Notes: generated from the sequence alone by a model not told the origin. DNA of 64,000 nucleotides from a virus (IMGVR_UViG_3300035659_000001); one strand, 5' to 3'. Numbered from the stretch's first letter, positions 7,591-51,388 are shown. Made by a program: numbers and translations.

Positions 7591-7661
7591 CCCTCTATAA
7601 CTCAGTGGTAGAGTGGCGTTCTCTAAAAATGCTGTCATCAGTTCAAATCTGATTAGAGGGA
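7591..7661 (+). tRNA. tRNA with anticodon CUA (amber-suppressor type; amino-acid identity undetermined)
   Basis: Manual cloverleaf: acceptor CCCTCTA/TAGAGGG, D arm ACTC-AGTGGTA-GAGT, anticodon stem GCGTT/AATGC with loop CTCTAAA (U33, anticodon CTA, A37), T arm ATCAG-TTCAAAT-CTGAT, discriminator A. No encoded CCA. Confidence 0.7.
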
Positions 7662-10832: not shown

Positions 10833-12497
10833 TCACTTCTTGAAAATGTTATCTACAGTTAACCACGCTCTTTTTGACATCCACAAACCAAATGTTTTCA
10901 CATATATAATTTGATTTTTTTCATGAGCATCAGAACCCAATGAAATTTTTACGCCCAAACTCTTGCATCTTTTAAGAATCATTTCATTTGCATCTAATCT
11001 ATTTGGCTGACAATTCAATTCAATTGCAACATTATTCTGTTTACAGGCTTGCAAAACAGTTTCTACGTCAACTAAATGACCCTCACGTTCATTTATTATT
11101 CGACCAATTATATGACCTATTGTATGAACTTTGCCTGTCTGTATTGCTTTCACGTACGTTTCTGTAACATCTTTCTGTGTATTGGTATGAATTGAAGCGA
11201 TTACAAAATCAAGCTGATCTAAAATTTCATCAGGATAATCTAATGAACCATCACTTTTAATATCAACTTCAGACCCTTTCAATATCTTAATCATTGGATA
11301 TTTTACTCTCAAAATATCGATTTCTTTATTCCTTTTCAATAAATCATTGATAGATAAACCTTTTGCAATTTTCAATGACTGAGAATGATCTGTTATTGCT
11401 ATTTCTTCAAGATCTTGACTAATGGCAAAATTAACAATTTCTTCAATTGATGATTTGCCGTCTGACCACGTTGAGTGTATATGATAATCACCTACAATAT
11501 TTGACTTATCTAATAAAGTGATAATATTTTGGTCTAATTTGTATTTTTGTATTTCATCTTGACCGCTTCTATGTTCTGGCGGTACCCAATGTAAACCGAG
11601 CAATTTGTAAATGTCTTTTTCAGTTCCATTGTCAAGTCTATCGCCAGTTCTTTCATTTCCATTTCTTTTGTATAAACCGTATTGTGAAAGAATGAGACCT
11701 TTTGATATTGCAATTTCACGCAATCTTTTATTATGATCTGCAGAACCTGTTAAATGCATCAAACCAGATTCAAAATCTTTTTCACTAAATGCATAACAAT
11801 CAACTCGAACGCCTTTTATCCATATTGATGATTTTTTTTCACCAGAATCAATTACACTATCGACAATTGGCATTTGTTCAAACACTCTTAATGAATCTTC
11901 TTCATTTTTTGGAATGATTGCGATGTCAATGTCACCGACAGTTTCCGTCGACCTTCTGAATGATCCACCGACATCGATTCTTAAAACGTAAGGAGATACA
12001 TAAGAAAAAATATCTCTGACTAAAATAATTGCTTCGTCTAATCTTATCCTGCCCTTTGTTTTATCTAAATATTCAAGACCTTTTTTTACTTTCAAGATCA
12101 TTTTATCACCAAGGACAGAACTAATTGAATTGTCAGCTATAGAAGCTTTTAATTGTTCAATCGTAAATATGCTTAATTCACGTTGAATCTTTATAGCAGT
12201 TTTTTCTCCAATACCTTCAACTTTTAATAATTCATCAATTTTAAAACTAGATGTAAGATGTTGTTTATTGTCTTCGATATATTGGATTTTACCCGTAGAT
12301 AAATATTCTTTGATATGACCTGCTATTTTAGGCCCTATGCCTTTTGTATTTTCTAAATCTATAGTATTTATAGGTACTGATAATAAACGGACAAATTGCG
12401 AAGCTTTTACATAAGCTCCAACAGAGAATGCATTAGAACCAGTAGCTTTTTTAATCTTCGATATCTCTAATAAAATATCACTTACATTATCATTCAT
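10833..12497 (-). CDS. polX: Family X DNA polymerase (Pol beta-like) with a C-terminal PHP phosphoesterase domain
   Basis: HhH motifs 'IGPKIAGHI' and 'IGEKTAIKI', nucleotidyltransferase 'GGSFRRSTETVGDIDI', and PHP 'DYHIHSTWSDG...ITDHSQS'. Confidence 0.85.
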   Translation of the reverse strand: MNDNVSDILLEISKIKKATGSNAFSVGAYVKASQFVRLLSVPINTIDLENTKGIGPKIAGHIKEYLSTGKIQYIEDNKQHLTSSFKIDELLKVEGIGEKTAIKIQRELSIFTIEQLKASIADNSISSVLGDKMILKVKKGLEYLDKTKGRIRLDEAIILVRDIFSYVSPYVLRIDVGGSFRRSTETVGDIDIAIIPKNEEDSLRVFEQMPIVDSVIDSGEKKSSIWIKGVRVDCYAFSEKDFESGLMHLTGSADHNKRLREIAISKGLILSQYGLYKRNGNERTGDRLDNGTEKDIYKLLGLHWVPPEHRSGQDEIQKYKLDQNIITLLDKSNIVGDYHIHSTWSDGKSSIEEIVNFAISQDLEEIAITDHSQSLKIAKGLSINDLLKRNKEIDILRVKYPMIKILKGSEVDIKSDGSLDYPDEILDQLDFVIASIHTNTQKDVTETYVKAIQTGKVHTIGHIIGRIINEREGHLVDVETVLQACKQNNVAIELNCQPNRLDANEMILKRCKSLGVKISLGSDAHEKNQIIYVKTFGLWMSKRAWLTVDNIFKK

Positions 12498-16022: not shown

Positions 16023-17000
16023 ATGAAAGCAAATTTAGCAAAACAAGATAAAAAGCGCTTTGTAATTATGTTAATTTGTCTCATTTTATTTTCATTGTGC
16101 TTTGCGCAAAAAGATTCAACAAGTGATAGTTCACACGTGCTATTACCAAAGTCAATCGGTCCAACAACTCTATTTCAAAAATCATCAAGATTTAGAATGC
16201 AAGAATATAATTATTTCCTTTTTGGTTTAAGTAAAAAAAGTCCTATAATGGAATACAAAAATCAAGTTAAAATTTTATTTAGCATGAAATTTAATTTTTT
16301 TACTTTTACTTATGATTCATTATTAGTACTTGTTAAATTCAAAAAGATAACTAAAAATTTTAATTTATATAGAAGTTTAAACGTTGATATCGGCTATAGA
16401 CAAAAAAGCTTCTGGAATATTTATGATGATTCTACTTCTCGTCCAATGTATGACAATAATTACTCACCCTCTTTCTATCTTTCATGGATAACTTACATCA
16501 AAAAAATATCATTACCAATTTCAATATTAGCAGGCTATGTTCACGAATCAAACGGTGGAGCTACTTTTTTAAACCCATATTGTCCGGCAATATCAAGAAG
16601 TTGGGATAGAATTTATTTAGGCGCAAGCGCAGGAAATTTACAAACAAATCTTGTAACATTTCAATTAGATATGTGGGTACCTTTTGGTCTTGAAGAAAAT
16701 ACTGATATATATAAACATTATGGAATTGGTGAAATAACTTTGTACTATCAGCCATTTTTCAAATATCAACATTCATTATCAAATTTTGGTCTATCATTTA
16801 CGTGGAAAATAGCTAGTGAAAATTTCAACAATGCTGAACTTAGCTTATTTTTCAGTCCCTTTCAATTTGCTAAAAACAAAATTCTACGATTATTCACGCC
16901 CACATTTTATTCTCAACTATATTTAGGAAGCGGTGAGAATTTAATTGATTATCAAACTAGACATATTTCTTTTAGAATCGGTTTAGCTACGTTATTTTAA
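16023..17000 (+). CDS. pldA: Outer-membrane phospholipase A (OMPLA/PldA family) with signal peptide
   Basis: Signal peptide 'FVIMLICLILFSLCFA', a catalytic 'HESNGG...SRSWDRIYLG' block matching PldA 'HDSNG...SRSWNRLY', and a beta-barrel C-terminus ending in F. Confidence 0.75.
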   Translation: MKANLAKQDKKRFVIMLICLILFSLCFAQKDSTSDSSHVLLPKSIGPTTLFQKSSRFRMQEYNYFLFGLSKKSPIMEYKNQVKILFSMKFNFFTFTYDSLLVLVKFKKITKNFNLYRSLNVDIGYRQKSFWNIYDDSTSRPMYDNNYSPSFYLSWITYIKKISLPISILAGYVHESNGGATFLNPYCPAISRSWDRIYLGASAGNLQTNLVTFQLDMWVPFGLEENTDIYKHYGIGEITLYYQPFFKYQHSLSNFGLSFTWKIASENFNNAELSLFFSPFQFAKNKILRLFTPTFYSQLYLGSGENLIDYQTRHISFRIGLATLF

Positions 17001-17348: not shown

Positions 17349-18281
17349 ATGAAAATTTCAAATATTCATTCATTAATGACAAGAATACAAACTGTATTTA
17401 TTGATAATTTTGGTTTTACACCATTACGTCAAAGAAATCAAGACATACTCACAGAAGCTATTGAGATATCAAGGTTTTCATCGACTGCTAATCTCAAAGA
17501 AGAACATGGTGATTTATTGTGCAGCCTTTTAATGAGTTTCAAAGAAAACGGTTGGGACCCTGTTGAATGTGTTGAAGCAACATTAAATAAAATTGAAAGA
17601 AGAAAAAGTCAATATCAAGCATACGGTCGAAAATTGTCAATAGCTATTTTAGGTGGTGCGTTTGACCCAATTACTGTGGGCCATATTGCAGTCGCTGAAT
17701 TTCTATTAAATGCTAGCTCACAATTCGACGAAGTCTGGATAACACCCTGTCGTAAGCATTTATTTAATAAAAAATTAGCAGATGCTGAGTATAGATTAGA
17801 ATTATGCAGATTAGCAACAAAGCATGATAGACGTATAAAAGTTTGGGATTATGAAATTAAACATAAACTTGGCGGTGAAACTTACAATCTTGTTAAACGA
17901 TTATTAGCAGATAAAGAATATTATGATAAATATAGTTTTTCAATTGTAATAGGCATGGATAATGCAAACACTTTCAATCAATGGATGAATTTTGAACATC
18001 TTGAACGATTAATACCATTTGTTGTTGTTACTAGAAGTGGTATAGAGATAAAGCATGAAAGTAATTGGTATTTAAAGTCACCGCATAAGTTTCTTGTGCC
18101 AGAGAAACCATTGCCTGAAGTTTCATCAACAATTATTAAAGCTGATTTATGCATATATTATAATATTTTTAAATCAGCGGGTGCTAGTTTAGGTAAAGAA
18201 AATCCATTAATAAATCGATTGAAAAATAATTTGAATCCTGAAGTTTTTGCGTCAATTATAAAAAATGAGGCATATAAGTGA
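17349..18281 (+). CDS. Nicotinamide/nicotinate mononucleotide adenylyltransferase-like enzyme (NadD/NMNAT family)
   Basis: 'ILGGAFDPITVGHIAVAE' (cytidylyltransferase GxFxPxHxGH), 'GGETYNLVKRL', 'IVIGMDNANTF'. A ~100-aa N-terminal extension of unknown function. Confidence 0.65.
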   Translation: MKISNIHSLMTRIQTVFIDNFGFTPLRQRNQDILTEAIEISRFSSTANLKEEHGDLLCSLLMSFKENGWDPVECVEATLNKIERRKSQYQAYGRKLSIAILGGAFDPITVGHIAVAEFLLNASSQFDEVWITPCRKHLFNKKLADAEYRLELCRLATKHDRRIKVWDYEIKHKLGGETYNLVKRLLADKEYYDKYSFSIVIGMDNANTFNQWMNFEHLERLIPFVVVTRSGIEIKHESNWYLKSPHKFLVPEKPLPEVSSTIIKADLCIYYNIFKSAGASLGKENPLINRLKNNLNPEVFASIIKNEAYK

Positions 18282-23429: not shown

Positions 23430-24032
23430 ATGAAAAGTAAGTTTGCTAGAAGGATGTCGTTTGTTCAAAAAGATCAAATGCGTAAAATGTTTGTTGAGCA
23501 ATATGCAATTAGTTGTATAGCACGAAAGTTTAAATGTCGTCAGAATACAGTATGGAATAATGTATTTGATCTTGACAAAAATTACACACTTTCTAAAGAA
23601 AGAAAAATTAGAGCAATTACACATAGTAAGTTGAAAGTTGAACAAGTGAAGTTAATTAGAAGTTTGTCATATAAAGATAGAAAAAAATATAATGCAATTG
23701 CATTAGCAAAGCTGTATAAAGTTAGTCAATCAACTATTCTTGGTGTAGTACGAGGTAAAACTTTTAGATGGGTTGATGGATGGATATGTTCTAAAAAAGT
23801 TTGGAATTATTTGAAACCATCTAAACAAATTAGACCAAAAGGAAAAACTGATGTTAAATTTGGTCCAAGAATAGGATCACATTTTCATTATCGTAATGGT
23901 GAATTAACAGTTATTGCGAAAAAAGCCGGTGTTTCTCTTTCTACTATGTGTAGAAAAATGAAGAGAATGAGAATGAAAGAATTGACAAAGAAAAAGAAAT
24001 TGCATTTAACACATAATGATGAAGAACGATAA
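23430..24032 (+). CDS. Helix-turn-helix DNA-binding protein (several HTH-like repeats)
   Basis: Repeated 'sQ..Ia..f.vs.sTv' HTH-like segments ('LAKLYKVSQSTILGVVRGK', 'IARKFKCRQNTVWN', 'IAKKAGVSLSTMCRK') and a basic tail. Confidence 0.4.
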   Translation: MKSKFARRMSFVQKDQMRKMFVEQYAISCIARKFKCRQNTVWNNVFDLDKNYTLSKERKIRAITHSKLKVEQVKLIRSLSYKDRKKYNAIALAKLYKVSQSTILGVVRGKTFRWVDGWICSKKVWNYLKPSKQIRPKGKTDVKFGPRIGSHFHYRNGELTVIAKKAGVSLSTMCRKMKRMRMKELTKKKKLHLTHNDEER

Positions 24033-24056
24033 TCTGTTGCCGGTTTTGAAAAGAAG

Positions 24057-24347
24057 ATGCAACTGGATGTTACTATGATAGATTTTATACTAATTATAAT
24101 AGGTTTAATACTCATATATAAATGTAATATAGTTCTTATCAACGAGGATAAGTATTTATTATGGGTTTTCCTCGCTCCTTATGGATTAATATTTAAAGTT
24201 TTATTAATAAAAGCTACTTTTAATACTTATATGGGTAACTCATGGGATTTTAGTTTTTATACTATAGTAACTATATATTGTTGTTTAGCGGGTTTGCTTG
24301 ATGTACGGTGGTATTATAAATTTAAAAATAAAATAAATAAAATATGA
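24057..24347 (+). CDS. small membrane protein
   Basis: Three hydrophobic helices. Confidence 0.3.
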   Translation: MQLDVTMIDFILIIIGLILIYKCNIVLINEDKYLLWVFLAPYGLIFKVLLIKATFNTYMGNSWDFSFYTIVTIYCCLAGLLDVRWYYKFKNKINKI

Positions 24348-24380
24348 GAGTTTGTAAAAAATAAATTCGCAGAAGATAAA

Positions 24381-24539
24381 ATGACTGACAATATGAATGA
24401 CGATGATTACATTGTTTGTGGTCAATGTGGCTGCGATGAATTTATTATTGACGAGAAAGATGTAGTTAACGTTGAAAATAAAACTGCTACATGTGCTAAT
24501 TGTAAAAAAGCATATAAAGTTAAATTTTTAAAAAATTGA
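24381..24539 (+). CDS. small zinc-ribbon protein (52 aa)
   Basis: 'MTDNMNDDDYIVCGQCGCDEF...TATCANCKKAYKVKFLKN*', two CxxC pairs. Below the ORF-track cutoff. Confidence 0.3.
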   Translation: MTDNMNDDDYIVCGQCGCDEFIIDEKDVVNVENKTATCANCKKAYKVKFLKN

Positions 24540-24710
24540 GGTTGGAAATGCAAAAATTTAATAAAGGTGAGAAAAAAGTAGATAATACAGTTGGAATTTC
24601 TACAAAATCTAAAAAACTAATGTTCTTTATTGATCCACAAATTAATTTTATAAAAAATAAAGACGACAACTTGTCTAATTTCATTAAAGCGAGACATGTC
24701 AATCAACTTA

Positions 24711-25358
24711 TTAGAACGTGGCGCTGCACCGGCGTCTAATTTCATCAATTAACCATTTTCTAGCATTAGTCTGCTGCACAAGTTTATGATTCATGTTGAT
24801 TTTTTCAATAAATTCTTTGTATGATATTTTTTCAAATGTATAAATAGCTGATTCAAGTGAAACATTGTATATCTTACTCAAACTATTTTTGTAGACTTCA
24901 TAATAAGCATTGCCTCTTAAATATGCTTTCTCATTTTGTTTTCCTCTATGCTCTACATCATGAAAGTGACTTTTATTATTAATAAATCTACCATCATATC
25001 CCAATAAATATATTTCTTTAAATTGTAATGCAATACCCACTGATAAGGCAAACAAACCCACTAAATAAGGACTATACATGCCATCTTTAAATCCATTAGT
25101 ATTATATTGTTTTGACGTTTTTAATGTAATGAAATCATCAGGAACTGACAAAACTTTTTTTGTTATTTTCAATGCTTTATTATTTAGTATTTGTTGTTTA
25201 TTGTTTTGAGAAAAATCTTTATCGACCCAAACAATAGCTGTCGGCTCATAAAAATGACATACAAAATTTAATCCAAACGTTATGTGATTATTTAATGTAT
25301 GCAAATCAAAACTATCTATGCTAGAACCACCACCAATTATTATTAGCTTTTCATTCAT
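24711..25358 (-). CDS. GT42-like (CstII/Cst-I sialyltransferase-like) glycosyltransferase
   Basis: The motif order matches Campylobacter CstII. 'KLIIIGGGSSI' corresponds to IIAGNGPSL, 'TFGLNFVCHFYE' to VFRCNQFYFE, 'YLVGLFALSVGIALQFKEIYLLGYDGRF' to GVYMCAVAIALGYKEIYLSGIDFY, and 'HFHDVEH' to the catalytic-His region. Confidence 0.55.
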   Translation of the reverse strand: MNEKLIIIGGGSSIDSFDLHTLNNHITFGLNFVCHFYEPTAIVWVDKDFSQNNKQQILNNKALKITKKVLSVPDDFITLKTSKQYNTNGFKDGMYSPYLVGLFALSVGIALQFKEIYLLGYDGRFINNKSHFHDVEHRGKQNEKAYLRGNAYYEVYKNSLSKIYNVSLESAIYTFEKISYKEFIEKINMNHKLVQQTNARKWLIDEIRRRCSATF

Positions 25359-28300
25359 TTTTTAATCTTCTTGATGCTTGAAAGTGTTCAATTACAGGCT
25401 TATCTGCATCTTTCATTGTGTCAAAGATTTGACAATATGCAGGAGATAAAATGTAAGTTTTCAAATTTTGCAATGAATTAACTGCTTCATGAAGATAGGA
25501 TTGATCTAATTTATATTTTTTATTATTGCTATTAACTAACTGTTTCCATTTTTCTAACAATTCAAAAGCTTTTTGAGTATAATTGAAATACATAGTACCG
25601 CCAAGCAGCTCGCTAGTGTTATTTCTTTTCATTCTTAAGTGATATGCAAAATCATATTTATCTAACTTAAATAATAACTCAGGCTGTTGTTGAATTATTG
25701 CATCACAATCAACCCATACTACAGGACATCTATGCTTATTTAGCATGTCTTTAACAAATTCAGTTCTATAAAAACAATTTGCAAACCAACTACCCTGTGA
25801 GTTAATACCAATTATTTCATAATTCAATTTAAATTTTTTCAATGATAATTCTAAAGTTTTGTATTCTTTTTCATAGCCTGTATTTTTAGTATAATAAGAC
25901 ACAAACACTAAGTTAGAAGTCGGTTGTTCTAGTTGACGTGTAACTTGTTTTGATTCAACAATTGGTTGAATTTGTTCAATCTCTTTAAATGTGGTTTGTT
26001 CAAATTGAATATCTAAATTTTTAAAATCTATATTCTTACGATTAGGTAACAAATTAATAAAATCATTACTCATATTTTCAATCTCTTTAAATTTATTTTG
26101 CATTACTAATTGAAAAGTGTTATCCCATAATTTCTGAGTGACTGACCAACTAAAAAACTTTTCAATGTGTTGTCTATTTCTTTCGCCAGTTTGTCGTCTT
26201 AATTGAAGATTGTTTTTCAATAACAATAACTTTTCATTCATTTCTTTTATTACTTGATCATCAGGTGTCACTGACACTATCCATTGCTCGTCTAATAGCA
26301 TACAGATACTGCCAACTTTAGTTGAAACAACTGGCAATCCGCAAGCCATTGCTTCTAATACTACTCTTGGCATACATTCACTTATGCTTGTTAAAATTAA
26401 TACATCAATTGAATTGTAAAAGTCTTTCATTTTGTCTAATGTTTGACCATCAACAAAGTATTGCTTTCCCCAGTCACTCTTTTTTTCAACTTTAAAATCT
26501 AATTGATCTAATAAATAAGGTCTTTTTACATCTCTGATGCAGCCTGCCCAACCAACAATAAAACTATTTGATTTTTTATTAGAAGGAATAAAGTAATTAG
26601 TATCAATAGCTTCAGGTAAGAAAATTACTGACTTGTTAGGATACATTTGTCTCAAAAAATCCAGATGTTGAATCGAAATTGAGACTATTATGTCAGGCTC
26701 AGGTTCGTATTTCATTTTACATTCGCCGCCATAGCCGCCAATTATTTTCACATTCTTTTGTTTTAATTGTGTTATCAATTGCTGACATCTAGTATAATCT
26801 ATATTCGGTGAATGTATGTACACTACATCAGCGCTTAAAGTTGTTACATCTAGTAATCTTTTATATTCAATGTTATGAGTTGAATATTTTTGTTGATCTT
26901 TTGCAATAAAATAATATGCCCAACCGAACTGGTCAATTATTTTACAAATAGTAAGTTTTTTGTTTTGTAAGGTTGGTTTCTGTTGAATATTTTGAACATT
27001 TTTTTTAGTAGGTACATATTCATTCCAATTTCTAAAACATAACTTGCATGTGTCATTCATTTTATTTGGCTCACAGAGACTGTCTCTTAAATTGCTGGCA
27101 TAGTCATTTTGCCAGACAATATTATCTTTTATGGTTCCGTGTTCTTTTGCAGGCGCAAAGACGGAACCACAAAATGAAACGCTTCCGTTACCATTTATGC
27201 CAATTGTTGTCCACGGTATTTGACAATTACATCTTATTTCATTTCGTTGTATTAATGTAGGATAAAGCTTGATAATGTCAGCTTCTGGTAGATTTTGCAA
27301 TTCGTCAATTTCTTTTTTATCATTATACGTTAATACTTCATTCCAAAAATTTTCATCATCATAATTGACAGCTAAGTGAGGTAATAAATTTAATAAATGA
27401 ACTGTTTTAACACCATGATCTTTTACTAATTTTAAAAATTCAGGAACATATTTCAAATTACTTTTCGTGCAAACATAAGAACAAAATGTATTAAGATCAT
27501 TACTTATACAAAAATCAATGCCTTGTAAGACTTTTTGAAATGTATTTGAATTATTTATTTTATTATGTAGTTTTGCATTTGGTGCATTTAAGCTAATCGA
27601 TATATAATCAGGTTTTGCATTAAGTAATTCATTAGCTCTATCAATTATTAATGACCCATTGGTTATTAGACCCACAATTTTATTTTTATTTTTCAAATGG
27701 TTAATAATTTGAAATAAATTTTGATTTAGAAATGGTTCACCATACCCTGCACAACAAAAACTTTTTAAACTATCAAATTTAGATAATAAATTATTGACAG
27801 TTTCAATAGTTAAGTCAGGCGCTTGTTCAATTAGATTTGTATTTCTGTAGCAAAAATTACAATTAAAGTTGCATTTTGAAGTTAAGTATAAATTTGCATT
27901 TATAGGCATTTGTAAGAAGCTACGTGCACGTTCAAAGCTTCGATGATGACATCTAAAATCTTTTTCACCAATTTGTATGTTATCATTAATCAAACTAGTG
28001 TATATTCCAAGAAATGCATATAAGTTATTTTCGGAAGGATTAGATTTTAATATATTCCATAATTTTAGCGGTAAATCAGCAATCCATATATATTTGAATT
28101 GCTTAAATTTGTCCATTAAATTATAATAACGTTCAAATATACCTTCATTTGACCATTGTGGAGCATGTTTGCCAACTATATTTTTAAATAATTTAATTAA
28201 ATATCCATCTTGTTTAAGTCTGTCAATTTGTTCAACTTCACAAGACATTGATTCTAAATTATATGGATATTTTTTGAGAATATCATGCTTGTAAATTTTT

Positions 28301-28623
28301 ACGCCCGAGATTTCAAAGTCAAGATGAACATCAATTAAATTACAAATTATAATGGCAGTTTTATTATTAGATTGCTTAGCGAAATTATAGAGTGTTTCAA
28401 TGCCATTTTCATTCATAACCATATCTTCATCTATTTCAATATAATATGACGTTTTACAAGAGTCAATCATTAATTGAAAAGCTGCAGACATTGGATGAAC
28501 ATTTTTAATAATTTCAATATTGAACGTGAGCGTTTGCTGTTGCAATGCTTTTATACATTCATTATAGCACGGATTTTCCCCACAGCTAATTACAAAAACA
28601 GTTAAGTCTTTAGCAAAGTTCAC
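25351..28623 (-). CDS. 1090-aa four-domain enzyme: GT-A/GT2-like, radical SAM with SPASM/twitch Cys cluster, GT-B/GT4, and a C-terminal DXD nucleotide-sugar transferase-like domain
   Basis: N-terminus 'TVFVISCGENP' and 'YYIEIDEDMV' (DXD). rSAM 'YLTSKCNFNCNFCY' (CX3CX2C), 'GYGEPFL', 'ISISLN'. SPASM 'CNCQIPWTTIGINGNGSVSFCG...CEPNKMNDTCKLC'. GT4 'VGWAGCIRDVKRPY...ECMPRVVLEAMACGLPVVSTKVG'. C-terminus 'PVVWVDCDAI'. Overlaps the GT42 gene by 8 nt. Confidence 0.75.
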   Translation of the reverse strand: MNFAKDLTVFVISCGENPCYNECIKALQQQTLTFNIEIIKNVHPMSAAFQLMIDSCKTSYYIEIDEDMVMNENGIETLYNFAKQSNNKTAIIICNLIDVHLDFEISGVKIYKHDILKKYPYNLESMSCEVEQIDRLKQDGYLIKLFKNIVGKHAPQWSNEGIFERYYNLMDKFKQFKYIWIADLPLKLWNILKSNPSENNLYAFLGIYTSLINDNIQIGEKDFRCHHRSFERARSFLQMPINANLYLTSKCNFNCNFCYRNTNLIEQAPDLTIETVNNLLSKFDSLKSFCCAGYGEPFLNQNLFQIINHLKNKNKIVGLITNGSLIIDRANELLNAKPDYISISLNAPNAKLHNKINNSNTFQKVLQGIDFCISNDLNTFCSYVCTKSNLKYVPEFLKLVKDHGVKTVHLLNLLPHLAVNYDDENFWNEVLTYNDKKEIDELQNLPEADIIKLYPTLIQRNEIRCNCQIPWTTIGINGNGSVSFCGSVFAPAKEHGTIKDNIVWQNDYASNLRDSLCEPNKMNDTCKLCFRNWNEYVPTKKNVQNIQQKPTLQNKKLTICKIIDQFGWAYYFIAKDQQKYSTHNIEYKRLLDVTTLSADVVYIHSPNIDYTRCQQLITQLKQKNVKIIGGYGGECKMKYEPEPDIIVSISIQHLDFLRQMYPNKSVIFLPEAIDTNYFIPSNKKSNSFIVGWAGCIRDVKRPYLLDQLDFKVEKKSDWGKQYFVDGQTLDKMKDFYNSIDVLILTSISECMPRVVLEAMACGLPVVSTKVGSICMLLDEQWIVSVTPDDQVIKEMNEKLLLLKNNLQLRRQTGERNRQHIEKFFSWSVTQKLWDNTFQLVMQNKFKEIENMSNDFINLLPNRKNIDFKNLDIQFEQTTFKEIEQIQPIVESKQVTRQLEQPTSNLVFVSYYTKNTGYEKEYKTLELSLKKFKLNYEIIGINSQGSWFANCFYRTEFVKDMLNKHRCPVVWVDCDAIIQQQPELLFKLDKYDFAYHLRMKRNNTSELLGGTMYFNYTQKAFELLEKWKQLVNSNNKKYKLDQSYLHEAVNSLQNLKTYILSPAYCQIFDTMKDADKPVIEHFQASRRLKNE

Positions 28624-28691
28624 TTTTTTGTCACTTTCAAAAATTTTTAATCTATTAATATAAGATTTAGATTAGGCACCAGTTTACATAA

Positions 28692-29357
28692 TTAGAATGT
28701 TCTTCTAAAAGGAGATGCAGTCGGAATATTTATATTGTATGACTGCGGCTTTGATCCTTTAGGCGCTGCTACTACATTTACTATATAATTGTAATTGTCA
28801 CTCCAAATAACACCGTCACTGACTTGTAAAGCTATTTGACGAGACATATCTGATACGTCGCCCAACACTTTAATTTTAGCTGTTGTGTCAGTTACTGAAG
28901 AAATTTCGTATTTAGTTCCAGGTGATACTAGTAATTTAAAACTACCAGGATAAGGTTTACTTGTTTGAACGTTTAGATTGTTCAAAGTAATTGTAAAATA
29001 TGAGCCAATGTACATTTTTGGAAAGCTTGTTTGATTGACAATTATTGGAATTTCAACAACTGTTACATTCAATATGTACCAGTTACTATAATCAATTCCA
29101 TTATTTACTCTTACTTGAACTGACAGGTTACCTTTATAACTAGCTGTGGGAATCACATATAAGTACGTGACTTCACCTGAGTCAGTGTCAATAGTATAAT
29201 GAGCGCCTGAATGAGCTTCTATTGACCAGTCTTTGCCACTACCGTCTGGATAGTCTGGATCATCAACAATCAAATCTGTTAATCTGACTGTTAAAACTTT
29301 GTTTTCTCCTAAAATAATAGGATTTACAATTTGACCTGTAATAATTGGAGCTGACAT
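28692..29357 (-). CDS. hypothetical protein, beta-rich (possible Ig-like/structural or carbohydrate-binding)
   Basis: Ser/Thr/Val/Asn-rich with alternating patterns. No catalytic motif. Confidence 0.35.
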   Translation of the reverse strand: MSAPIITGQIVNPIILGENKVLTVRLTDLIVDDPDYPDGSGKDWSIEAHSGAHYTIDTDSGEVTYLYVIPTASYKGNLSVQVRVNNGIDYSNWYILNVTVVEIPIIVNQTSFPKMYIGSYFTITLNNLNVQTSKPYPGSFKLLVSPGTKYEISSVTDTTAKIKVLGDVSDMSRQIALQVSDGVIWSDNYNYIVNVVAAPKGSKPQSYNINIPTASPFRRTF

Positions 29358-29432
29358 AAATTTTTCCTTTCGTTATGAAACGACAATTCTGTTCATTTAG
29401 ATTTAGATGAAAGATAAACTCTTAAGAAAATT

Positions 29433-29890
29433 ATGATTTTTGACACAATCATTAAAACATTTGAAGAAAAGAACAAAAGAAACTGGACAACACTTTATTT
29501 TGCAATTGATCTACACGGCACGATAATCAATAAATATAAAGGTGATGAAATCGAGCCAATTGAATTTGCGACTGAAGTACTTACAGAATTGAGTAGTACA
29601 CCTGACATTGTTCTGATTCTATTTACTTCAACTTATCTCGAACAACTTACTCATTTTTATAAATGGTGTTCAGAAAACAACATTAACTTCAAATATCTAA
29701 ATGAAAATCCAGAATGTCCTAGTACTATTACTGGAGATTTTTCAAAAAATTCTACTATAATGTATTGATTGATGATCGTGCAGGGTTTGATCATTCAGAA
29801 TGGCTCGAAGTTCTCAGAGCAGTCAAAATTGGTTCTAAGTTGTACTATAATAAAAAACGACTGCGTGCTATTACGCCAAAGAAGAATTAG
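29433..29890 (+). CDS. HAD-superfamily-like hydrolase interrupted by a -1 frame change at an A-run (pseudogene or programmed -1 frameshift)
   Basis: Frame 0 'AIDLHGTI' (motif I-like) ends at 29768. The -1 frame continues 'KKFYYNVLIDDRAGF...' (HAD motif IV-like hhhDD) to 29890. The junction 'A AAA AAT' (29744-29750) is an X XXY YYZ slippery heptamer in the correct phase. Confidence 0.4.
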
Positions 29891-30075
29891 TCCTTACCAG
29901 TTATGGGGGTGACCTTTTACTATCCCCATTTTTCCTCTGCACGTCATCCATGTAATACCATGAATATAGTTTATTCCTTTAGGCATTTAATGCTATACAC
30001 GTTAGATACTTATTGGACATATCGCGCTGAGAGGTGGTTCGCTTCACTCATTAAAGATGGCTGCCTCTAAGCCCA
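29885..30075. ncRNA. Candidate structured RNA (GC-rich ORF-free island)
   Basis: No ORF of 60 aa or more, GC clearly above the flanks. Hairpin TGGGGG-N15-CCCCA and GCTGAGAGG...CCTCTAAGC pairing. Strand unknown. Confidence 0.25.
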
Positions 30076-33817: not shown

Positions 33818-34561
33818 TTATTCATTTTTTTCTCCATTCATAAGCCATTTGAATTTGTTTAAGTTATTTTTATAATATACTTCTTTATCAATAAATTTTA
33901 CGACACGTTGCGGTTCCCTTACTAACAAACCGAATTTACTGCGTGTGGTTATATTAACTGCTAAAGTATTTGCATCTAAATCTTGATTACAATTAATATC
34001 ATTAATTAAAAACCCATCAAGTTTATCTATTGCCAAGATTATGCCTGGTTCAATAGTATCACATCTGATAATATTATTATTAACATCATGAATGGTTTTC
34101 ATACTCAGTCTAGTTTTGTAGTTACATACATAATATTTAAAATCACAGTATGTGCTGAAATCAAGTTCATTGAAATCTTGAAAATCATTTATAATTACGA
34201 TATTTTTAGTCATATCAAAAATATAATTAATGATTTTTAACAAACATTGCATTTCTAGTTCAGACAATTGATCTGCGATTTTAATTGCCAAATCAGTCTT
34301 ATCTAAAAGAAGCTCTATATCTAAACGACATTGCAAATCATATTTTAAAACATGAAATGCTGCACTATTACACTTAAATAATGTAAACGCTTCTCTACGA
34401 ACTGAATTAGCTATAGAATTTGATGGATTAATAATAGTAATGTTTTGATTATTATCTAATGTAATGTACGTGTCATTTAGACGCAAAACAGACATTTGTG
34501 ATTGAATAAAATTTTTACGAATGAAGTGGCATTGTAATCGTTGATTAATGACATTTATCAT
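33818..34561 (-). CDS. hypothetical protein (247 aa)
   Basis: ORF. Confidence 0.4.
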   Translation of the reverse strand: MINVINQRLQCHFIRKNFIQSQMSVLRLNDTYITLDNNQNITIINPSNSIANSVRREAFTLFKCNSAAFHVLKYDLQCRLDIELLLDKTDLAIKIADQLSELEMQCLLKIINYIFDMTKNIVIINDFQDFNELDFSTYCDFKYYVCNYKTRLSMKTIHDVNNNIIRCDTIEPGIILAIDKLDGFLINDINCNQDLDANTLAVNITTRSKFGLLVREPQRVVKFIDKEVYYKNNLNKFKWLMNGEKNE

Positions 34562-37925: not shown

Positions 37926-40900
37926 TTATTCGTTTGCCATTTCATCATATTTGGCTAATTTCTCCTTTTGCTCGGGAGTTCTTTCATATAAATTGCCAAC
38001 ACAACAAATATCTAACAAATCTATAAATATTCTGCCCATATATTCGCTAGCAACAGCTTCACCAACTAAAATATTATCAACTTTGATAACTTCTTGAACT
38101 TTGACTTTTGCATATTTTCCAGTTTCTTGTTTTAAAAGAAAAGCGCTTGAGCATCTTCTATTATAACAGGGTATTCTAACTTTGACCATGTTAAATTTTG
38201 AATCAGTTAATGTCACATAATAATAACTATTATTAGCTTTACTTGTTTTTTCAACAATCTCAGAAGCTACTCCCCAAACAGTAGCTTTCATATTTACTTT
38301 TGGTTGTGTAAAATTTGTTAACATGACAGCTTTTAATTTTGCAACTTCTCTTTTTTGACTATCAGATAATTTTGTTCGCCAATCTAAAGCATAAGCATCA
38401 ATAAACTGTTCATGTTCATATTTTGTATCATTATAATCAACATCTCGTTCCCACTTTTTCTCTTTTCTTATTTCTTTGTAATATTTTTCTAATATCTCAT
38501 TTTGAGTGCCAAATGCATCAAATGCATGACCGCTAATTAAAGCTATCATAGCTGTTTTTGTTATTTTCTTTATTTGTGATGTTTTCTCGCAAAAATCTTC
38601 AAATGAATCAAATGGCTGTGACTGTAAAATATTATTTATAACTGCAGGTCCTACATGATTTATATGGCCTAAGCCAAACATAATACTTTTTTCTTCACCA
38701 TATATTGAAAAACCTTCTTTAGCTCTGCTAATATTTGCAGGAACAATACTTATGCCATGACTTATGATCTCTGCAAAATAACTTGTAAACTTTTCCTTCA
38801 ATGAATTTGACAACAATACTACATAAAACTCCAAAGCATAATATTCTTTAAACCACATCATCTGGTAACTTAGAACAGTGTATGCTACTGCATGCGAGCG
38901 GTTGAATCCGTAGCGTGCAAATGCGACGCAACTTTGCCACAAAATTTCAGCAGAAGTTTCAATTAAGTCACCGACGCTTATACAGCCCTTAATAAATTTA
39001 TCATGAATTTCTTTTCGTTGTTTAGCTTCTTTATCTTTTGCATCAGTGTCTCGTATTGATTTCATTAAATTTTTTCTAACTGTATCAGTCAAATCTAATG
39101 GAAATCCTGCAACCATGTGACACAATCTCATTACATCTTCTTGATAAACTAAAATACCATAACTTGATTTCAAACATTTTTCAACTAATTTTGATTCGTA
39201 ATTGAATTCTTTACCATTTTTTCTTTGTGCATATTCATGATGCATTCCCATATCTAACGGTCCGGGGCGACCTAGCGCTGTTGCTGTCGTTATGTCAGAA
39301 AACGTTGTAGGTTTTATTTCTTTCAATAAAGCTTTCATTAAGTTGCTATTATGAACTACAAATCCATTAGCTATATAATTATGATTTATAGCTTCAGGAT
39401 CAAAACCAATATCATAAACTTCTTTTGTACCAACAAATTGAATGGCTTTAATTGGCACATATATATACCTGAACATGTGTCTTGCAAATCGTTTATATAT
39501 TTTAACTTTAACTTTACCCTTTTTCCATACACGTCTAAGAATATAATCTTTCTTATAAGTTTTTATTGGTCTAAATTTTGACAACAATTGAGGTCTACAT
39601 GTTCTTTGACCACTTCTAATGCAACTTGCGCAATTTTCAGCTATACCTTGCACATCTACTGATCTATTGTAAAATGCACAATAATGTTGACATCTGAACC
39701 GCTCTTGATCAATTAATATTTTGTCATCAACTTTTAATTCTTCTAATCTTTTCCAACCGCGAGGTGTATAAAATTCATGTAGTAATGCAGTTTCAATACA
39801 TCTATCGTTATCATATTGAACTGTAACTCTGTAAACATCTCGTACTTGTTTTTTCATAGCAAATATTTTTTGTCTAATTTTCATTTTTCTAGTTGACGGA
39901 TTTAAATTAACACAGCTAACTTTGTGTATTGACTTTTTATTTTTTTCAAACATATCATATAAGTTTTTGATTCTATATGAGCCAACCCATGAATTGCCGT
40001 CAATACATTCAAATTGAAAAATACCATTTGTATCAGTTTGTCTAAATTTTGAATAAATTGTGTTATTGCCATCTAACGGCAATTTTGATGAAAATTCTTC
40101 ATAAAATAATGATGTTATTTGCTTATGTTCAATAGATCGTAAATCAAAATCTGCTTTATCATTATACGATTTTGTTGATCTAATAATGTCAAGTATTTCT
40201 TTTATAATAGATAATGTTTTTAGACCAAGAATATCAAATTTAATGAATCCTGAAGATTGTAAATCTTTTCGAATGATGCCATCAACCCAGCTTGTTATAA
40301 GCTCATTTTTATGTCTCATTAAAGGTATTGTTTCATCAATTTTTGTCGGCGTTGCAACTACACCTGCGGGATGTTTTGTAAGATGTCTTAATTGGCCTTT
40401 TAGTTTGAATAAGATCTCTCTTATTTGAGGATGTCGTCCAAGATATTGTTTTATATCATATAGATCCTGTCTAAAGCCATCTTGACCAGATTCAATCATT
40501 AAAGTTGCGTCAAACACTTCTTCAGACATTTCATCAACATCATCAGCAAGATTTTTAACAACATCATTAGTGTCTTGAATATCAATATCAAATATTCTAG
40601 CAATATCTCTTAAAACCATTTTCATTTTCATTTGACCGTAAGAGCCAATAGGAGCTACATGGTCATTGCCATATTTGTCAATAAAATATTTAATGACAAG
40701 TTCTCTTTCATTCATACTAAAATCACTATCAATGTCAGGAAATGAAGATTGCTTTTTGATTTTTAGAACGATGTTGTTTTTGATTGGATCTGTAGACGAT
40801 ATGTTTAAAAGATAATACATTAAAGAACCGTGCGTTTTAACTTTTACTTTATTTTTAATGAGGCTAATTATGTAGTCTTGTAAATTTTGAACATTGACAT

Positions 40901-45053: not shown

Positions 45054-45779
45054 TTATAGATAATCATATTGATCTACTATGCTTGTCAATAAATCAAAGT
45101 GTTTTTCGTATACATGTAAACTATTTGAATGCCAATTTATATATCCAATTTCTAAATTTGGATAAATTTTTTTTAAATCATTATACAATAAATCATAGAC
45201 ATAACATTTAAAATAAAAATCATTTAAAAAACCATAAATTAGATCTGAACTTCTGAAATGTACACTACTTATTAGTTTATTATTTCGAATAAAAAATGTA
45301 TTACTTAAACAACAAATAAAGTCAGACATTCCATTTTTATTAAAATCCATCCACATACTTGGTCTATTATAAATCATGATTGCTCTTCTACTATCTTTGT
45401 TCATTCTTAATTCATTTAAGCAATTATTATATTGATTATAATTTTCAGACGAAAAAATGCACCAGCCATAATTTGAATTAACTAATTTTTCATCATCTTT
45501 AGAACATATCATATTCCAAATTTGAATATTATCTACATAATTTTTTATAGATAAAGATTGACTTAAATACCATTCAAGCTCTTTCCTACAATAATTTTCA
45601 TTTGTTTTCCTTATTTTAAAATCTAAAACAGGTTGACTTGGGTTTAAGTTTAAAATTTGAGCATCTATAAGTTCGACAGTTTTTACACAACTTTTATCTA
45701 TAACAAACTCTGAATTTTTTATTTTTCTATACAATTCAAAAAAGTATTGCTTAAGTATTGCTTCATTTTTCATTCTCAT
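45054..45779 (-). CDS. Deoxycytidylate (dCMP) hydroxymethylase, T4 gp42-like (thymidylate synthase superfamily)
   Basis: Collinear with T4 gp42. 'FVIDKSCVKTVELI' corresponds to 'FVVDKTGVKTIEII', 'RKELEWY' to 'QRELEWY', and 'NSNYGWCIF...RRAIMIYNRPSMWMDFNKNGMSDFICC' to 'NSNYGWAIW...RRGIMIYTRPSMQFDYNKDGMSDFMC'. Size 241 aa. Confidence 0.85.
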   Translation of the reverse strand: MRMKNEAILKQYFFELYRKIKNSEFVIDKSCVKTVELIDAQILNLNPSQPVLDFKIRKTNENYCRKELEWYLSQSLSIKNYVDNIQIWNMICSKDDEKLVNSNYGWCIFSSENYNQYNNCLNELRMNKDSRRAIMIYNRPSMWMDFNKNGMSDFICCLSNTFFIRNNKLISSVHFRSSDLIYGFLNDFYFKCYVYDLLYNDLKKIYPNLEIGYINWHSNSLHVYEKHFDLLTSIVDQYDYL

Positions 45780-50099: not shown

Positions 50100-50270
50100 T
50101 CATGACATTACATGACGACGATCTTTCATTTCATATATCTCATTGTCTTTTTCCTGTATTTCTTTCTTTGCATTGTCTAGTGCAATTTCTTTTTCACATA
50201 AAGGACAATCAAAGACATGGTCGGGGTATGTCACTGCTGTCCCATTTTCATGTCGATCACAACTTCTCAT
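50100..50270 (-). CDS. small zinc-ribbon protein (56 aa)
   Basis: 'MRSCDRHENGTAVTYPDHVFDCPLCEKEIALDN...'. Start overlaps the upstream stop in ATGA. Below the ORF-track cutoff. Confidence 0.3.
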   Translation of the reverse strand: MRSCDRHENGTAVTYPDHVFDCPLCEKEIALDNAKKEIQEKDNEIYEMKDRRHVMS

Positions 50271-51388
50271 AAAAAAATCCTTTTGTTAATTTGTACTATA
50301 CTATTAAATTTTTTCATAACATTTTTAATATCAAATGGTTCTAACTTTTCAATATGCTCATCTAATATTTGCTGTTTTTTAGTATTTGACAAGCTCAATA
50401 ACATTTCAATTGCTTGAACTAAATCATAAGCGTCAGAAGCTATTAGTGATTTATTGATAAACTTATCAATTCCTTTTTGTTCAGCTAAACCAATTGCAAG
50501 CACGCCGTTTGCGGTCGTCTCATGTATTCTTTGAGTTATGTGACCGTGTTCAGCATAATTCTTTTTACATAACAAAACTGACGACAAACAGTGTCTATAA
50601 ACTTTATGCATGTCCTTAGGTAATATTCTATCTCTAAATAATACACGTGGGAAGTTTATGCTATTTCTATTTGCTACGTCAGGATATTTTAACCAATTGC
50701 CTACAAATATTGTTTGAAATGGATATTTAACTGAAAAAGGATTAATGAATCTATAAAGTTGATCGTCTCTTTCATATTGCGAACCAACATATCCAATCAA
50801 ATAATCAAAATCTTTATTAACTTTAGTTCCTCTAATTTGTTCTAAATTACAAGGAAATAGTAAAGTCTCTCTGGGATATAATTGATCTATAAGAGGATAT
50901 AATGCAGGAGAAATGATTATAGGTTTATTGACAAAACATTTAAAAATTTTATAATCTTCTTCTATTATTTTTTCATCTTTGTCCCAAATTAATATCTGTG
51001 TATTTGTTAAACCATAATGTGACAATAAATCCATTTGTCTATCATAATCAGGTGTATAAGCAGCGCTTGACTTATCAACATCAAAATTTCTTTTGAGTAT
51101 TTTCCATCGCCATTCTAAAAATAAGATATTTATTTGCGGATATCCAGTATCATACTGTATTTTGCATAATGTTTGTTTTTGATTATCTAAATAATGTCTA
51201 TTTGTGTCAAACAATGGTTGATTAAACTTATTTACATCTCTATTTTGTTGAAGCCAAATTATAGTATAGTTATCATCAATTAAATTTTCTATGAATAATG
51301 ATCTAGTAAGTCGACCACCATCAGGTGAATCATTTTGACCATCGCCAACAAATCCCCAAGCTGAATAACCGATCTTAATATTTTTCAT
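50267..51388 (-). CDS. GT-B glycosyltransferase resembling T4 DNA beta-glucosyltransferase (GT63-like)
   Basis: 'IGYVGSQYERDDQLYRFINP...IFVGNW' parallels BGT 'VIYGGSFRSGQRESKMVEF...EFFGN'. 'HGHITQRIHETTANGVLAIGLAEQ' parallels 'DNFITLRVWETMASDAVMLIDEEF'. Genomic context with gp42-like. Confidence 0.5.
   Translation of the reverse strand: MKNIKIGYSAWGFVGDGQNDSPDGGRLTRSLFIENLIDDNYTIIWLQQNRDVNKFNQPLFDTNRHYLDNQKQTLCKIQYDTGYPQINILFLEWRWKILKRNFDVDKSSAAYTPDYDRQMDLLSHYGLTNTQILIWDKDEKIIEEDYKIFKCFVNKPIIISPALYPLIDQLYPRETLLFPCNLEQIRGTKVNKDFDYLIGYVGSQYERDDQLYRFINPFSVKYPFQTIFVGNWLKYPDVANRNSINFPRVLFRDRILPKDMHKVYRHCLSSVLLCKKNYAEHGHITQRIHETTANGVLAIGLAEQKGIDKFINKSLIASDAYDLVQAIEMLLSLSNTKKQQILDEHIEKLEPFDIKNVMKKFNSIVQINKRIFL

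Follow-up and report, generated by a model that had tools for sequence, protein, structure and literature searches.

A predicted multidomain glycosyltransferase and radical-SAM megaenzyme with a Maf-like partner in an uncultured large phage

Giant viruses of algae and amoebae, and a few phages, are known to encode glycosylation machineries, none of which pairs a radical S-adenosylmethionine (SAM) enzyme with glycosyltransferases. Proteins A111/114R and A064R of PBCV-1 are multidomain glycosyltransferases producing the capsid N-glycan, and A064R carries a methyltransferase domain as well (PMC7826918, PMC9614988); a further precedent is provided by mimivirus glycosylation (PMC9614988). Mycobacteriophage glycosyltransferases are reported to glycosylate the C-termini of capsid and tail-tube proteins (Freeman et al. 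2023, cited in PMC12619734). Here we describe a three-gene operon located within a 64,000-nucleotide stretch of viral DNA, IMGVR_UViG_3300035659_000001 (the window). Its central gene encodes a polypeptide of 1090 amino acids (aa), denoted the megaenzyme, in which three predicted glycosyltransferase domains are joined to a predicted radical-SAM enzyme. The probable role of the operon is to assemble an unusual glycan, with either a phage protein or phage DNA as the acceptor.

Operon organisation and domain structure of the megaenzyme

The list of open reading frames (ORFs) of the window contains a minus-strand run of three consecutive genes, encoding proteins of 221, 1090 and 215 aa. The original prediction had described a two-gene module and was correct on the stop/start overlap of the megaenzyme gene and the small gene; the gene count has to be revised for the third gene lying upstream. 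The genes and the predicted domains are as follows, in the order of transcription.

28692..29357 (-), gene for the 221-aa protein
25351..28623 (-), gene for the 1090-aa megaenzyme, a single unbroken ORF with a GTG start
27910..28623 (-), domain 1, aa 1-238, GT-A fold, GT2-like, D65-E-D67
27244..27909 (-), domain 2a, aa 239-460, radical-SAM core (PF04055), C251X3C255X2C258 and GYGEP
27019..27243 (-), domain 2b, aa 461-535, auxiliary Fe-S region, twitch-like, C467-X12-G480-X4-C485 ... C526-X2-C529
26044..26976 (-), domain 3, aa ~550-860, GT-B fold of GT4 type (PF00534, PF13692), E749X7E757
25915..26043 (-), acidic linker, aa 861-903, poorly conserved and of varying length in the alignment
25354..25914 (-), domain 4, aa 904-1090, PF03407 nucleotide-diphospho-sugar transferase (GT77-like GT-A), D972-C-D974
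24711..25358 (-), gene for the 215-aa Maf-like transferase

The run is bordered by a divergent gene (29433..29768, +) on one side and by convergent plus-strand genes ending near 24347 on the other. A gap of 68 nucleotides (nt) separates the first two genes. The megaenzyme gene and the 215-aa gene overlap by 8 nt, ATGAATGA, which include the TGA stop of the large gene and the ATG start of the small one (junction ...AAAAATGAATGAAAAG), and this overlap, anticipated in the original prediction, suggests that their translation is coupled. The GTG start is credible because the closest homologue has the same N-terminus as the one it yields, MNFAKDL..., and the other aligned homologues begin in a related way. 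On sequence inspection, none of the three operon proteins carries a transmembrane segment or a signal-peptide-like stretch; a scan for promoters and terminators was uninformative in the AT-rich DNA of the window.

When the whole megaenzyme was searched against Pfam, two clear matches emerged, Radical_SAM and Glycos_transf_1, together with weak ones for SPASM and GT2. The predicted order on one polypeptide, GT-A, radical SAM, GT4 and a second GT-A (PF03407), is borne out by the ORF, the profiles and the motifs. PF04055 (Radical_SAM) matches residues 246-399 (E=3.6e-22, 79.7 bits against a cut-off of 29.5) and covers model positions 2-165 of 166, such that the radical-SAM motif lies within a full domain. 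The three Cys of the SAM-cluster motif, C251-NFN-C255-NF-C258, are invariant in 35 sequences sharing the GT-A-radical-SAM didomain, as are G293, G295, E296 and P297 of the GGE-type motif G293-Y-G-E-P297. In NCBIfam the best matches to this domain, none of which came near its cut-off, were to a tungsten-cofactor maturase, MoaA, NirJ and sactipeptide maturases, and in the PDB they were to MoaA, NifB and viperin (E ~1e-8); in these searches the domain was not placeable in any NCBIfam equivalog or characterised radical-SAM family.

The auxiliary region had been taken for a SPASM-type domain. Alignments of 11, and then 35, homologues revealed that its invariant Cys residues are C467, C485, C526 and C529 only, with C465 and C517 varying, and PF13186 (SPASM) reaches 15.4 bits (E=0.024) where the cut-off is 21.5; a full SPASM domain is not supported because of these two results. 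Moreover, the CX5CX3C element of the seven-Cys SPASM motif (CX9-15GX4C-gap-CX2CX5CX3C-gap-C), which serves two clusters, is not present in the region. Twitch domains are truncated SPASM domains that supply the ligands of a single auxiliary cluster, CX9-15GX4C among them (PMC9012708), and the phage region shows this pattern, with the first half of the SPASM signature followed by CX2C. It is a putative twitch-type domain binding a single [4Fe-4S] cluster. C-methylation, one of the reactions originally suggested for the radical-SAM step, is unlikely because no cobalamin-binding domain (Pfam) and no RlmN-type features were detected.

The N-terminal 240 residues constitute a sharply conserved module showing 45-52% identity to segments of otherwise unrelated proteins with multiple glycosyltransferase domains. 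An AlphaFold model based on the homologue alignment (predicted local distance difference test score 89.4) has a GT-A, Rossmann-like fold and, for the DXD motif, D67 is invariant and D65 is conserved in at least 90% of the 35 sequences. PF00535 attains 14.4 bits on the megaenzyme, against a cut-off of 23.3, yet it is matched by 9 of 13 relatives (best E=5e-6), and the domain therefore appears to be a divergent sister family of PF00535 rather than a clear member. Its best structural match is WrtF, a fucosyltransferase in O-polysaccharide synthesis (PMC12595478), and its likeness to polysaccharide GT2s is greater than that to TarP and far greater than that to SunS. A PDB sequence search with this domain yielded AP-1/AP-2 matches which were dismissed as spurious, and fold comparison was used instead.

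For the GT4-type domain, PF00534 (Glycos_transf_1) matches residues 706-818 (E=4.7e-14, 52.7-55.2 bits against a cut-off of 26.4) and PF13692 is matched with E=2e-13; the EX7E motif (E749-X7-E757) is retained in all seven full-length or near-full-length homologues. The C-terminal 239 aa, scanned alone, match PF03407 (Nucleotid_trans) with E=2e-6 and 28.4 bits (cut-off 22), and produced no match in a PDB sequence search. Conserved elements of domain 4 are DCD (D972-C-D974), DQSYLHE and EHFQASR, and the DXD is kept in each of the six homologues which have the domain. All three glycosyltransferase regions of the megaenzyme (D65-E-D67, E749X7E757, D972-C-D974) thus carry conserved catalytic residues.

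Mis-assembly, or an artefactual fusion of separate ORFs, is ruled out since independent contigs, at least seven of them at 53-81% identity, keep the fusion: five homologues (P0002-P0006), whose contigs and samples are different ones, can be aligned from end to end with 58-81% identity. A further homologue, P0007 (53% identity), comprises the first three domains only; domain 4 is encoded by the next gene (187 aa, 61% identical), and a Maf-like gene follows. In related locus L005 the polypeptide stops at the linker, with the counterpart of domain 4 encoded by a separate 187-aa gene, and in locus L006 the counterpart is a 206-aa gene.

The Maf-like transferase, the upstream protein and related loci

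The 215-aa protein had been predicted to be a CstII-like sialyltransferase of family GT42 with collinear motifs. Its PHROGs match is to phrog_4603, 'alpha-2,3-sialyltransferase' (E=1.8e-12). In Pfam, there was no match to the GT42 family PF06002 at E<=1, and no Cst chain in the PDB was matched by phmmer or by an 87-sequence profile of the 215-aa family, these PDB sequence searches being uninformative. PF01973 (MptE-like/Maf_flag10) is matched below threshold (13.2 bits, cut-off 34.6), and four homologues with 47-53% identity carry a precomputed PF01973 match. With regard to the catalytic His base and phosphate-binding Tyr pair of GT42, residue H131 is invariant in the phage family, and its spacing to the G-x-D motif seems to differ from that in CstII. 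The fold is that of the sialyltransferase-type modified GT-A and of the Maf central catalytic domain, with the following structure matches.

Maf glycosyltransferase 5mu5, score 15.8, 185 residues aligned
archaeal MptE HPPK, score 10.8
C. jejuni alpha-2,3-sialyltransferase Cst-I, score 9.5
mammalian GT29 sialyltransferases, score about 8

The central domain of Maf is itself a modified GT-A related to GT42, with a donor site closest to that of Cst-II, and Maf is a protein Ser/Thr O-glycosyltransferase which uses CMP-nonulosonic acids, and also CMP-Kdo, with flagellin as its natural acceptor (bioRxiv 10.1101/2020.06.03.131540). The assignment to CstII and GT42 consequently holds at the level of the fold class and fails as family membership, given that neither PF06002 nor a Cst profile is matched and Maf is the nearest structure. 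The most apt description of the protein is that of a minimal predicted transferase of the Maf_flag10/DUF115 type, with a sialyltransferase-like modified GT-A domain. Small proteins of this kind are common in uncultured Caudovirales and are present in giant viruses, and none has an assigned function. Considering the megaenzyme and the small protein together, four predicted transferase domains and a predicted radical-SAM/twitch enzyme have been established at the level of sequence, with catalytic motifs intact and under purifying selection.

The upstream 221-aa protein is soluble and beta-rich, with a Pro/Ser-rich C-terminal tail and no transmembrane segment. It produced sub-threshold matches to Big_9 and Cadherin (E=0.01-0.1 only) and the PDB sequence search was uninformative; an immunoglobulin (Ig)-like label was considered and is not substantiated. 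Homologues occur in the same cluster in loci L001, L003 (two copies), L005, L006 and L088 and on the contigs of P0004 and P0005, and wherever the upstream sequence of a genome of the lineage could be inspected, the cluster included the protein. It may serve the glycan module as acceptor or as partner. An exact 10-mer, ATCTAAATCT, precedes both this gene and the megaenzyme gene and occurs three times in the window.

28663..28672 (-), copy 1, 40-49 nt upstream of the megaenzyme start
29399-29408 (-), copy 2, 42-51 nt upstream of the 221-aa gene
33974-33983 (+), copy 3

This recurrence is statistically weak and the 10-mer is a possible shared promoter or regulatory element.

To trace the distribution of the megaenzyme, 1.84 billion cluster representatives were scanned with HMMER. 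At E<=1e-30, 364 representatives matched the query, mostly via one domain, and those collinear over three or four domains were P0006 and P0007 only. Several dozen of the best 150 span the whole GT-A-radical-SAM region, with proteins of ~540 aa aligned over residues 1-534 in one piece; judged by these alignments, the didomain is a common evolutionary unit. In IMG/VR, 45 related loci were found, many on contigs of 90-390 kb and many above 100 kb, and in ~25 of them the didomain is one ORF. Among 185,579 species genomes, the full didomain was present in four short contigs of metagenome-assembled genomes (MAGs) only. The didomain is essentially a viral-contig-borne, recurrent and unannotated family, and ten of its representatives are named only 'MoaA/NifB/PqqE/SkfB family radical SAM enzyme' in the source annotation. 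The GT-A module alone is frequent in chromosomes of Planctomycetota, Acidobacteriota and Nitrospirota, where it is fused to GT4 or GT2.

There is good evidence that the GT-A, radical-SAM and GT4 activities belong to one pathway because the parts recur fused, split and reordered across the viral loci. In other phages the GT4 domain is a stand-alone gene product of ~328 aa, encoded adjacent to the GT-A-radical-SAM gene; such adjoining genes occur in L091-L094, L100, L103 and L106, and lie directly upstream in L091-L094, L100 and L103. A stand-alone radical-SAM protein is encoded beside a fusion of the N-terminal domain and GT4 in L104, L115 and L119. In P0008-P0010 and L007 (10001-12649), the GT-A-radical-SAM gene carries an intein (Intein_splicing and LAGLIDADG) inserted in the radical-SAM core, ~40 residues past CX3CX2C.

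Since megablast of positions 24000-30000 against 50,697 phage records produced no match, and tblastn yielded single-domain matches only, at <40% identity, the phage has no sequenced close relative. No fusion of radical-SAM and glycosyltransferase domains in phages was found in the literature or in source annotation, in agreement with the earlier statement that no characterised phage enzyme of this architecture was known.

Neighbouring genes were compared by clustering 1041 ORFs from ~50 viral loci. A SAM-methyltransferase family is present in 27 loci, a Maf-like protein in 11, a GT10 fucosyltransferase in 7 and an NAD-dependent sugar epimerase/dehydratase in 6, and there are further methyltransferases of the Methyltransf_24, TylF and Methyltransf_11 types. 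In the nearest sister phages, L001 and L003, the cluster runs from the 221-aa protein through three unknown proteins, a TylF-type methyltransferase, Methyltransf_24, GT10 and Methyltransf_11 to the megaenzyme and the Maf-like protein. L006, on a 416-kb contig, carries a split version lacking the radical-SAM domain and consisting of a 221-aa homologue, an I-set Ig protein, a PF03407 glycosyltransferase, an epimerase, two methyltransferases, a GT4-type glycosyltransferase and a Maf-like protein. Export machinery is not part of the clusters, because polytopic membrane proteins (ORFs with at least three hydrophobic segments) number 8 of the 1041 in the viral loci and none in the lineage of the operon itself.

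Some features of the sister contigs were recorded in passing. L003 (GCA_030650065.1, JAUSEY010000618.1) is a contig of 33 kb which was binned as a Nitrosarchaeum MAG and carries the phage module; it almost certainly derives from a bacteriophage and was assigned to the archaeal genome in error, and it encodes a Ro60/TROVE protein. A block of trigger factor, Cas4, NucS and DnaB genes is syntenic between the window, L003 and L006. Near the glycan cluster, the sister contigs encode a TnpB/Cas12f-like protein (OrfB_IS605 and Cas12f1-like_TNB) and an RtcB RNA ligase (L001 17877-18926, -; L006 11050-12390, +).

Genomic setting and candidate acceptors of the glycan

For replication and recombination, the window encodes UvsX, SSB, helicase, primase, NAD-ligase, PolX, FEN and RNA ligase, in addition to a DnaE-type polymerase with an intein, a sigma-like factor, a NusG-like protein and six tRNAs. 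The DnaE-type (Pol III alpha) polymerase is split into two ORFs, 42853-44697 (-) and 37926-41012 (-), ~1.8 kb apart, with the RNA-ligase gene and a 209-aa gene between them and the intein in the second ORF. Three genes bear on DNA modification.

45054..45779 (-), gp42-like dCMP hydroxymethylase, E=1.4e-52 to T4 1B49 versus 4e-10 for thymidylate synthase
50267..51388 (-), GT-B-like gene with a weak Glyco_trans_1_2 match
51443-51967 (-), MazG/dUTPase_2 pyrophosphatase

The gp42-like protein has an Asp at the position of Asn177 of thymidylate synthase, setting cytosine specificity. The other two genes are located 5-6 kb beyond it, and the product of 50267..51388 showed no sequence match to any solved structure. 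Of the 5-hydroxymethylcytosine (hmC) pathway originally proposed, the hydroxymethylase and MazG are therefore upheld, and the BGT-like glycosyltransferase amounts to a weak match only. Going by these genes, the phage DNA is probably hmC-based, and it could instead be based on 5-hydroxycytosine (5hoC), which some gp42-like homologues make (PMC13326640). The hydroxymethylase, MazG and GT-B-like genes are likely to constitute a DNA-modification set separate from the operon. In L005 a thymidylate synthase homologue (1451-2251, +) lies 8.5 kb from the module and is 25% identical to the gp42-like protein of the window; it has Asn, the dUMP type, at the base-specificity position, and bases derived from dUMP may be what the phage of L005 modifies or synthesises instead.

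Two cytidylyltransferase-like genes of the window belong to PF01467 and not to the CMP-NeuAc synthetase family. One, at 6424-7590 (+), is fused to dephospho-CoA kinase, an arrangement which corresponds to the final two steps of CoA synthesis, and the other is a second PF01467 nucleotidyltransferase at 17349-18281 (+); these PF01467/dephospho-CoA-kinase genes are unusual auxiliary metabolic genes in a phage. One of the six tRNAs, at 7591-7661 (+), was assigned by ARAGORN a CUA anticodon (amber suppressor, labelled 'Pyl'); the TAG recoding which it suggested finds no support, given that TAG ends 9 of 45 long ORFs. Further genes of the window are listed below.

80-607 (+), trigger-factor C-terminal homologue
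961-1761 (+), Cas4-like PD-(D/E)XK nuclease
16023-17000 (+), outer-membrane phospholipase A1
10833-12497 (-), PolX with PHP
57991-59289 (+), CCA-adding enzyme with HD
52009-52545 (-), NusG-like protein

The radical-SAM chemistry, donor sugars, order of steps and acceptor that we infer are as follows. The 221-aa protein, the megaenzyme and the Maf-like transferase would form a soluble, cytoplasmic glycan-assembly line of a large phage with a DnaE-type polymerase. The megaenzyme would contribute three nucleotide-sugar transferases (GT2-like GT-A, GT4 and PF03407 GT-A) and a radical-SAM enzyme carrying a single auxiliary [4Fe-4S] cluster. The latter would edit a sugar, either the donor of the fused GT-A or the residue which that GT-A has just transferred and, by analogy with carbohydrate twitch enzymes, the reaction could be a BtrN-type two-electron oxidation, an epimerisation or a dehydration. 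The Maf-like protein would add a CMP-activated ulosonic or nonulosonic acid of the pseudaminic (Pse), legionaminic (Leg), N-acetylneuraminic (Neu5Ac) or Kdo type, or might start the chain on Ser/Thr. The methyltransferases, GT10 and sugar epimerase/dehydratase of the sister phages would complete the cluster, and because these enzymes are present there the product is probably a methylated, deoxyhexose-containing heteroglycan. As acceptor we favour a phage protein, plausibly one associated with the virion and possibly the co-transcribed 221-aa protein, as in the glycosylation of chlorovirus, mimivirus and mycobacteriophage capsids or fibrils.

Phage protein, hmC-containing DNA and the host envelope remain the right shortlist of acceptors. 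A phage-encoded protein is our leading, if tentative, candidate and is ranked first because of the conserved non-enzymatic partner, the protein-glycosylating Maf relative, the lack of export genes and the chlorovirus, mimivirus and mycobacteriophage precedents. Several observations weigh against it. No virion gene lies beside the operon in the window, its neighbours being replication and recombination genes, and the window yielded neither a CMP-sugar synthetase nor a nonulosonic-acid synthase. The matches suggesting an Ig-like 221-aa protein are sub-threshold and any structural role or glycosylation of this protein is hypothetical, the small transferase lacks the flagellin-binding flanking domains of Maf (215 versus 632 aa), and the radical-SAM domain matches no characterised sugar-acting radical-SAM enzyme specifically in NCBIfam or the PDB. 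Moreover, DNA is a credible acceptor because the genome is predicted to make hmC-type DNA. The glycan would then be assembled on 5-hydroxymethylcytosine, or a related hydroxylated cytosine, primed by one glycosyltransferase and elongated by the others, with the radical-SAM enzyme tailoring the sugar, and such a complex DNA glycan would block restriction and CRISPR (clustered regularly interspaced short palindromic repeats) systems. This alternative, which we consider unlikely, gains from the presence of the gp42-like dCMP hydroxymethylase with its cytosine-specificity Asp and of MazG/dUTPase_2, from the DNA-metabolism genes surrounding the operon, from the solubility of all operon proteins, and from phage GT-A and GT-B enzymes which build di- and trisaccharides on hmC or 5hoC (bioRxiv 10.1101/2023.12.21.572611; PMC13326640). 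However, the hydroxymethylase and MazG genes are 20-25 kb from the operon and have their own adjacent glycosyltransferase-like gene (50267..51388), and in only one of the ~50 loci, L005, is a thymidylate synthase homologue found within 8-10 kb of the module, and that one is of the Asn, dUMP type. Among 80 gp42-like loci there was no module-bearing IMG/VR contig, a weak negative in a pattern-based search reaching close relatives only. The N-terminal domain is nearer to polysaccharide GT2s than to TarP, the O-methyltransferases, GT10 and Maf-like enzyme are what one would normally find with glycans of proteins or polysaccharides, and the conserved non-enzymatic partner has no obvious role in DNA modification.

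The same likeness to polysaccharide enzymes lends some weight to remodelling of host surface glycans, in which lipid-linked intermediates of lipopolysaccharide (LPS), capsule or S-layer, or flagellin or pilin, would be modified and exported by the host, altering the cell surface during infection, for example for superinfection exclusion or for avoiding the trapping of progeny. In large bacterial chromosomes, cellular homologues of the N-terminal domain are joined to GT4 and GT2 domains in the manner of polysaccharide synthases, and the O-polysaccharide fucosyltransferase WrtF is its best structural match (PMC12595478). Multidomain glycosyltransferases together with methyltransferases, or with ulosonic-acid termination, call to mind ABC-transporter-dependent O-antigen systems; moreover, flagellin is the natural acceptor of Maf. 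Glycosyltransferase-rich regions of aquatic myophages have, in addition, been proposed to modify host LPS (PMC7029224). Nevertheless, the clusters lack an initiating polyprenyl-phosphate transferase, flippase, polymerase and ABC exporter and encode almost no polytopic membrane proteins, the didomain is essentially viral (45 IMG/VR loci, ~25 of them with one ORF, against four short MAG contigs in 185,579 genomes), and the conserved, co-transcribed soluble protein is left unexplained, such that we regard a host acceptor as rather improbable. Least likely of all, and in our estimate very improbable, is a maturation of the kind seen for RiPPs (peptides made by the ribosome and modified after translation), whereby the radical-SAM/twitch enzyme would modify a side chain of a peptide or protein, such as the 221-aa protein, by thioether formation, epimerisation or oxidation, and the GT-A would then glycosylate it, as in glycocins and sactipeptides. 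Most SPASM/twitch radical-SAM enzymes of known function are indeed peptide maturases (PMC9012708), the NCBIfam matches include sactipeptide and other peptide maturases with alignments reaching into the Cys-rich region, and a conserved non-enzymatic gene stands at the head of the operon. These maturase-family matches are, however, all far below cut-offs, no RiPP recognition element or other peptide-recognition domain was detected, and the 221-aa partner is a folded protein rather than a short leader precursor. SunS is far outscored by polysaccharide GT2s, and three further glycosyltransferases and sugar-type methyltransferases (TylF) surround the gene in related loci.

Comparison with known systems

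It is possible, if doubtful, that the didomain represents a class of glycan-tailoring enzymes which is new and for the most part carried by viruses. Radical chemistry would in this class be physically coupled to glycosyl transfer, making or editing a sugar beyond the ordinary nucleotide-sugar pathways, and here, with two more glycosyltransferases and a minimal Maf-type partner, the didomain would yield a hitherto unseen methylated ulosonic-acid glycan on phage protein or hmC DNA. A recurrent GT-A-radical-SAM family implies unexplored sugar chemistry in environmental large phages. Knowing the product would extend the carbohydrate chemistry of radical-SAM enzymes by a new type of reaction and would show whether tailed phages place complex methylated or acidic glycans on their virions or their DNA, with a bearing on evasion of host defence, adsorption and phage immunogenicity. 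The fused megaenzyme offers a convenient starting point for biochemistry on one polypeptide.

The PBCV-1 glycosyltransferases resemble the present system in being soluble, virus-encoded polypeptides with multiple glycosyltransferase domains, which make an atypical methylated glycan containing fucose or rhamnose without host machinery, and in having similar sugar-tailoring neighbours. The likeness is one of architecture; they belong to eukaryotic giant viruses, include neither a radical-SAM domain nor a Maf-like partner, and have a known acceptor, the major capsid protein. The mycobacteriophage operons are similar in belonging to tailed phages with glycosyltransferases for virion protein glycans, and differ in that they are reported to be small operons of single-domain glycosyltransferases in phages of Actinobacteria, with no radical-SAM gene.

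Phage pathways acting on 5hmC or 5hoC (the alpha- and beta-glucosyltransferases of T4, GT-A/GT-B sets from metaviromes, and arabinosylation in RB69 and DLP3) share genomes with a hydroxymethylase of the thymidylate synthase family, successive soluble glycosyltransferases and, sometimes, sugar epimerases. The papers describe no radical-SAM enzyme, O-methyltransferase, GT10 or Maf-like protein for them, and in the window the module is not adjacent to the hydroxymethylase.

Among radical-SAM enzymes, the nearest parallels are the twitch enzymes BtrN and MoaA (PMC9012708), which act on carbohydrates or nucleotides and combine a CX3CX2C core with a truncated SPASM domain providing one four-Cys site (CX12GX4C ... 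CX2C), and MoaA is among the best NCBIfam and PDB matches of the phage domain. Nevertheless, the similarity is at the superfamily level only (E ~1e-8), BtrN is not among the PDB matches at E<0.01, and fusion to a glycosyltransferase is not seen in any of these enzymes. Maf (PF01973, PDB 5mu5) is a protein of ~630 aa (632), whereas the phage protein, 15% identical, consists of the catalytic core only (215 aa), the N- and C-terminal domains with which Maf engages flagellin being missing. Cst-I and Cst-II of GT42 are more distant, being outscored by both Maf and MptE and lacking any PF06002 or PDB profile match to the phage protein. The synthesis of glycans by virus-encoded multidomain glycosyltransferases is thus known, and what is new here is its coupling to a radical-SAM enzyme and the minimal Maf-type partner.

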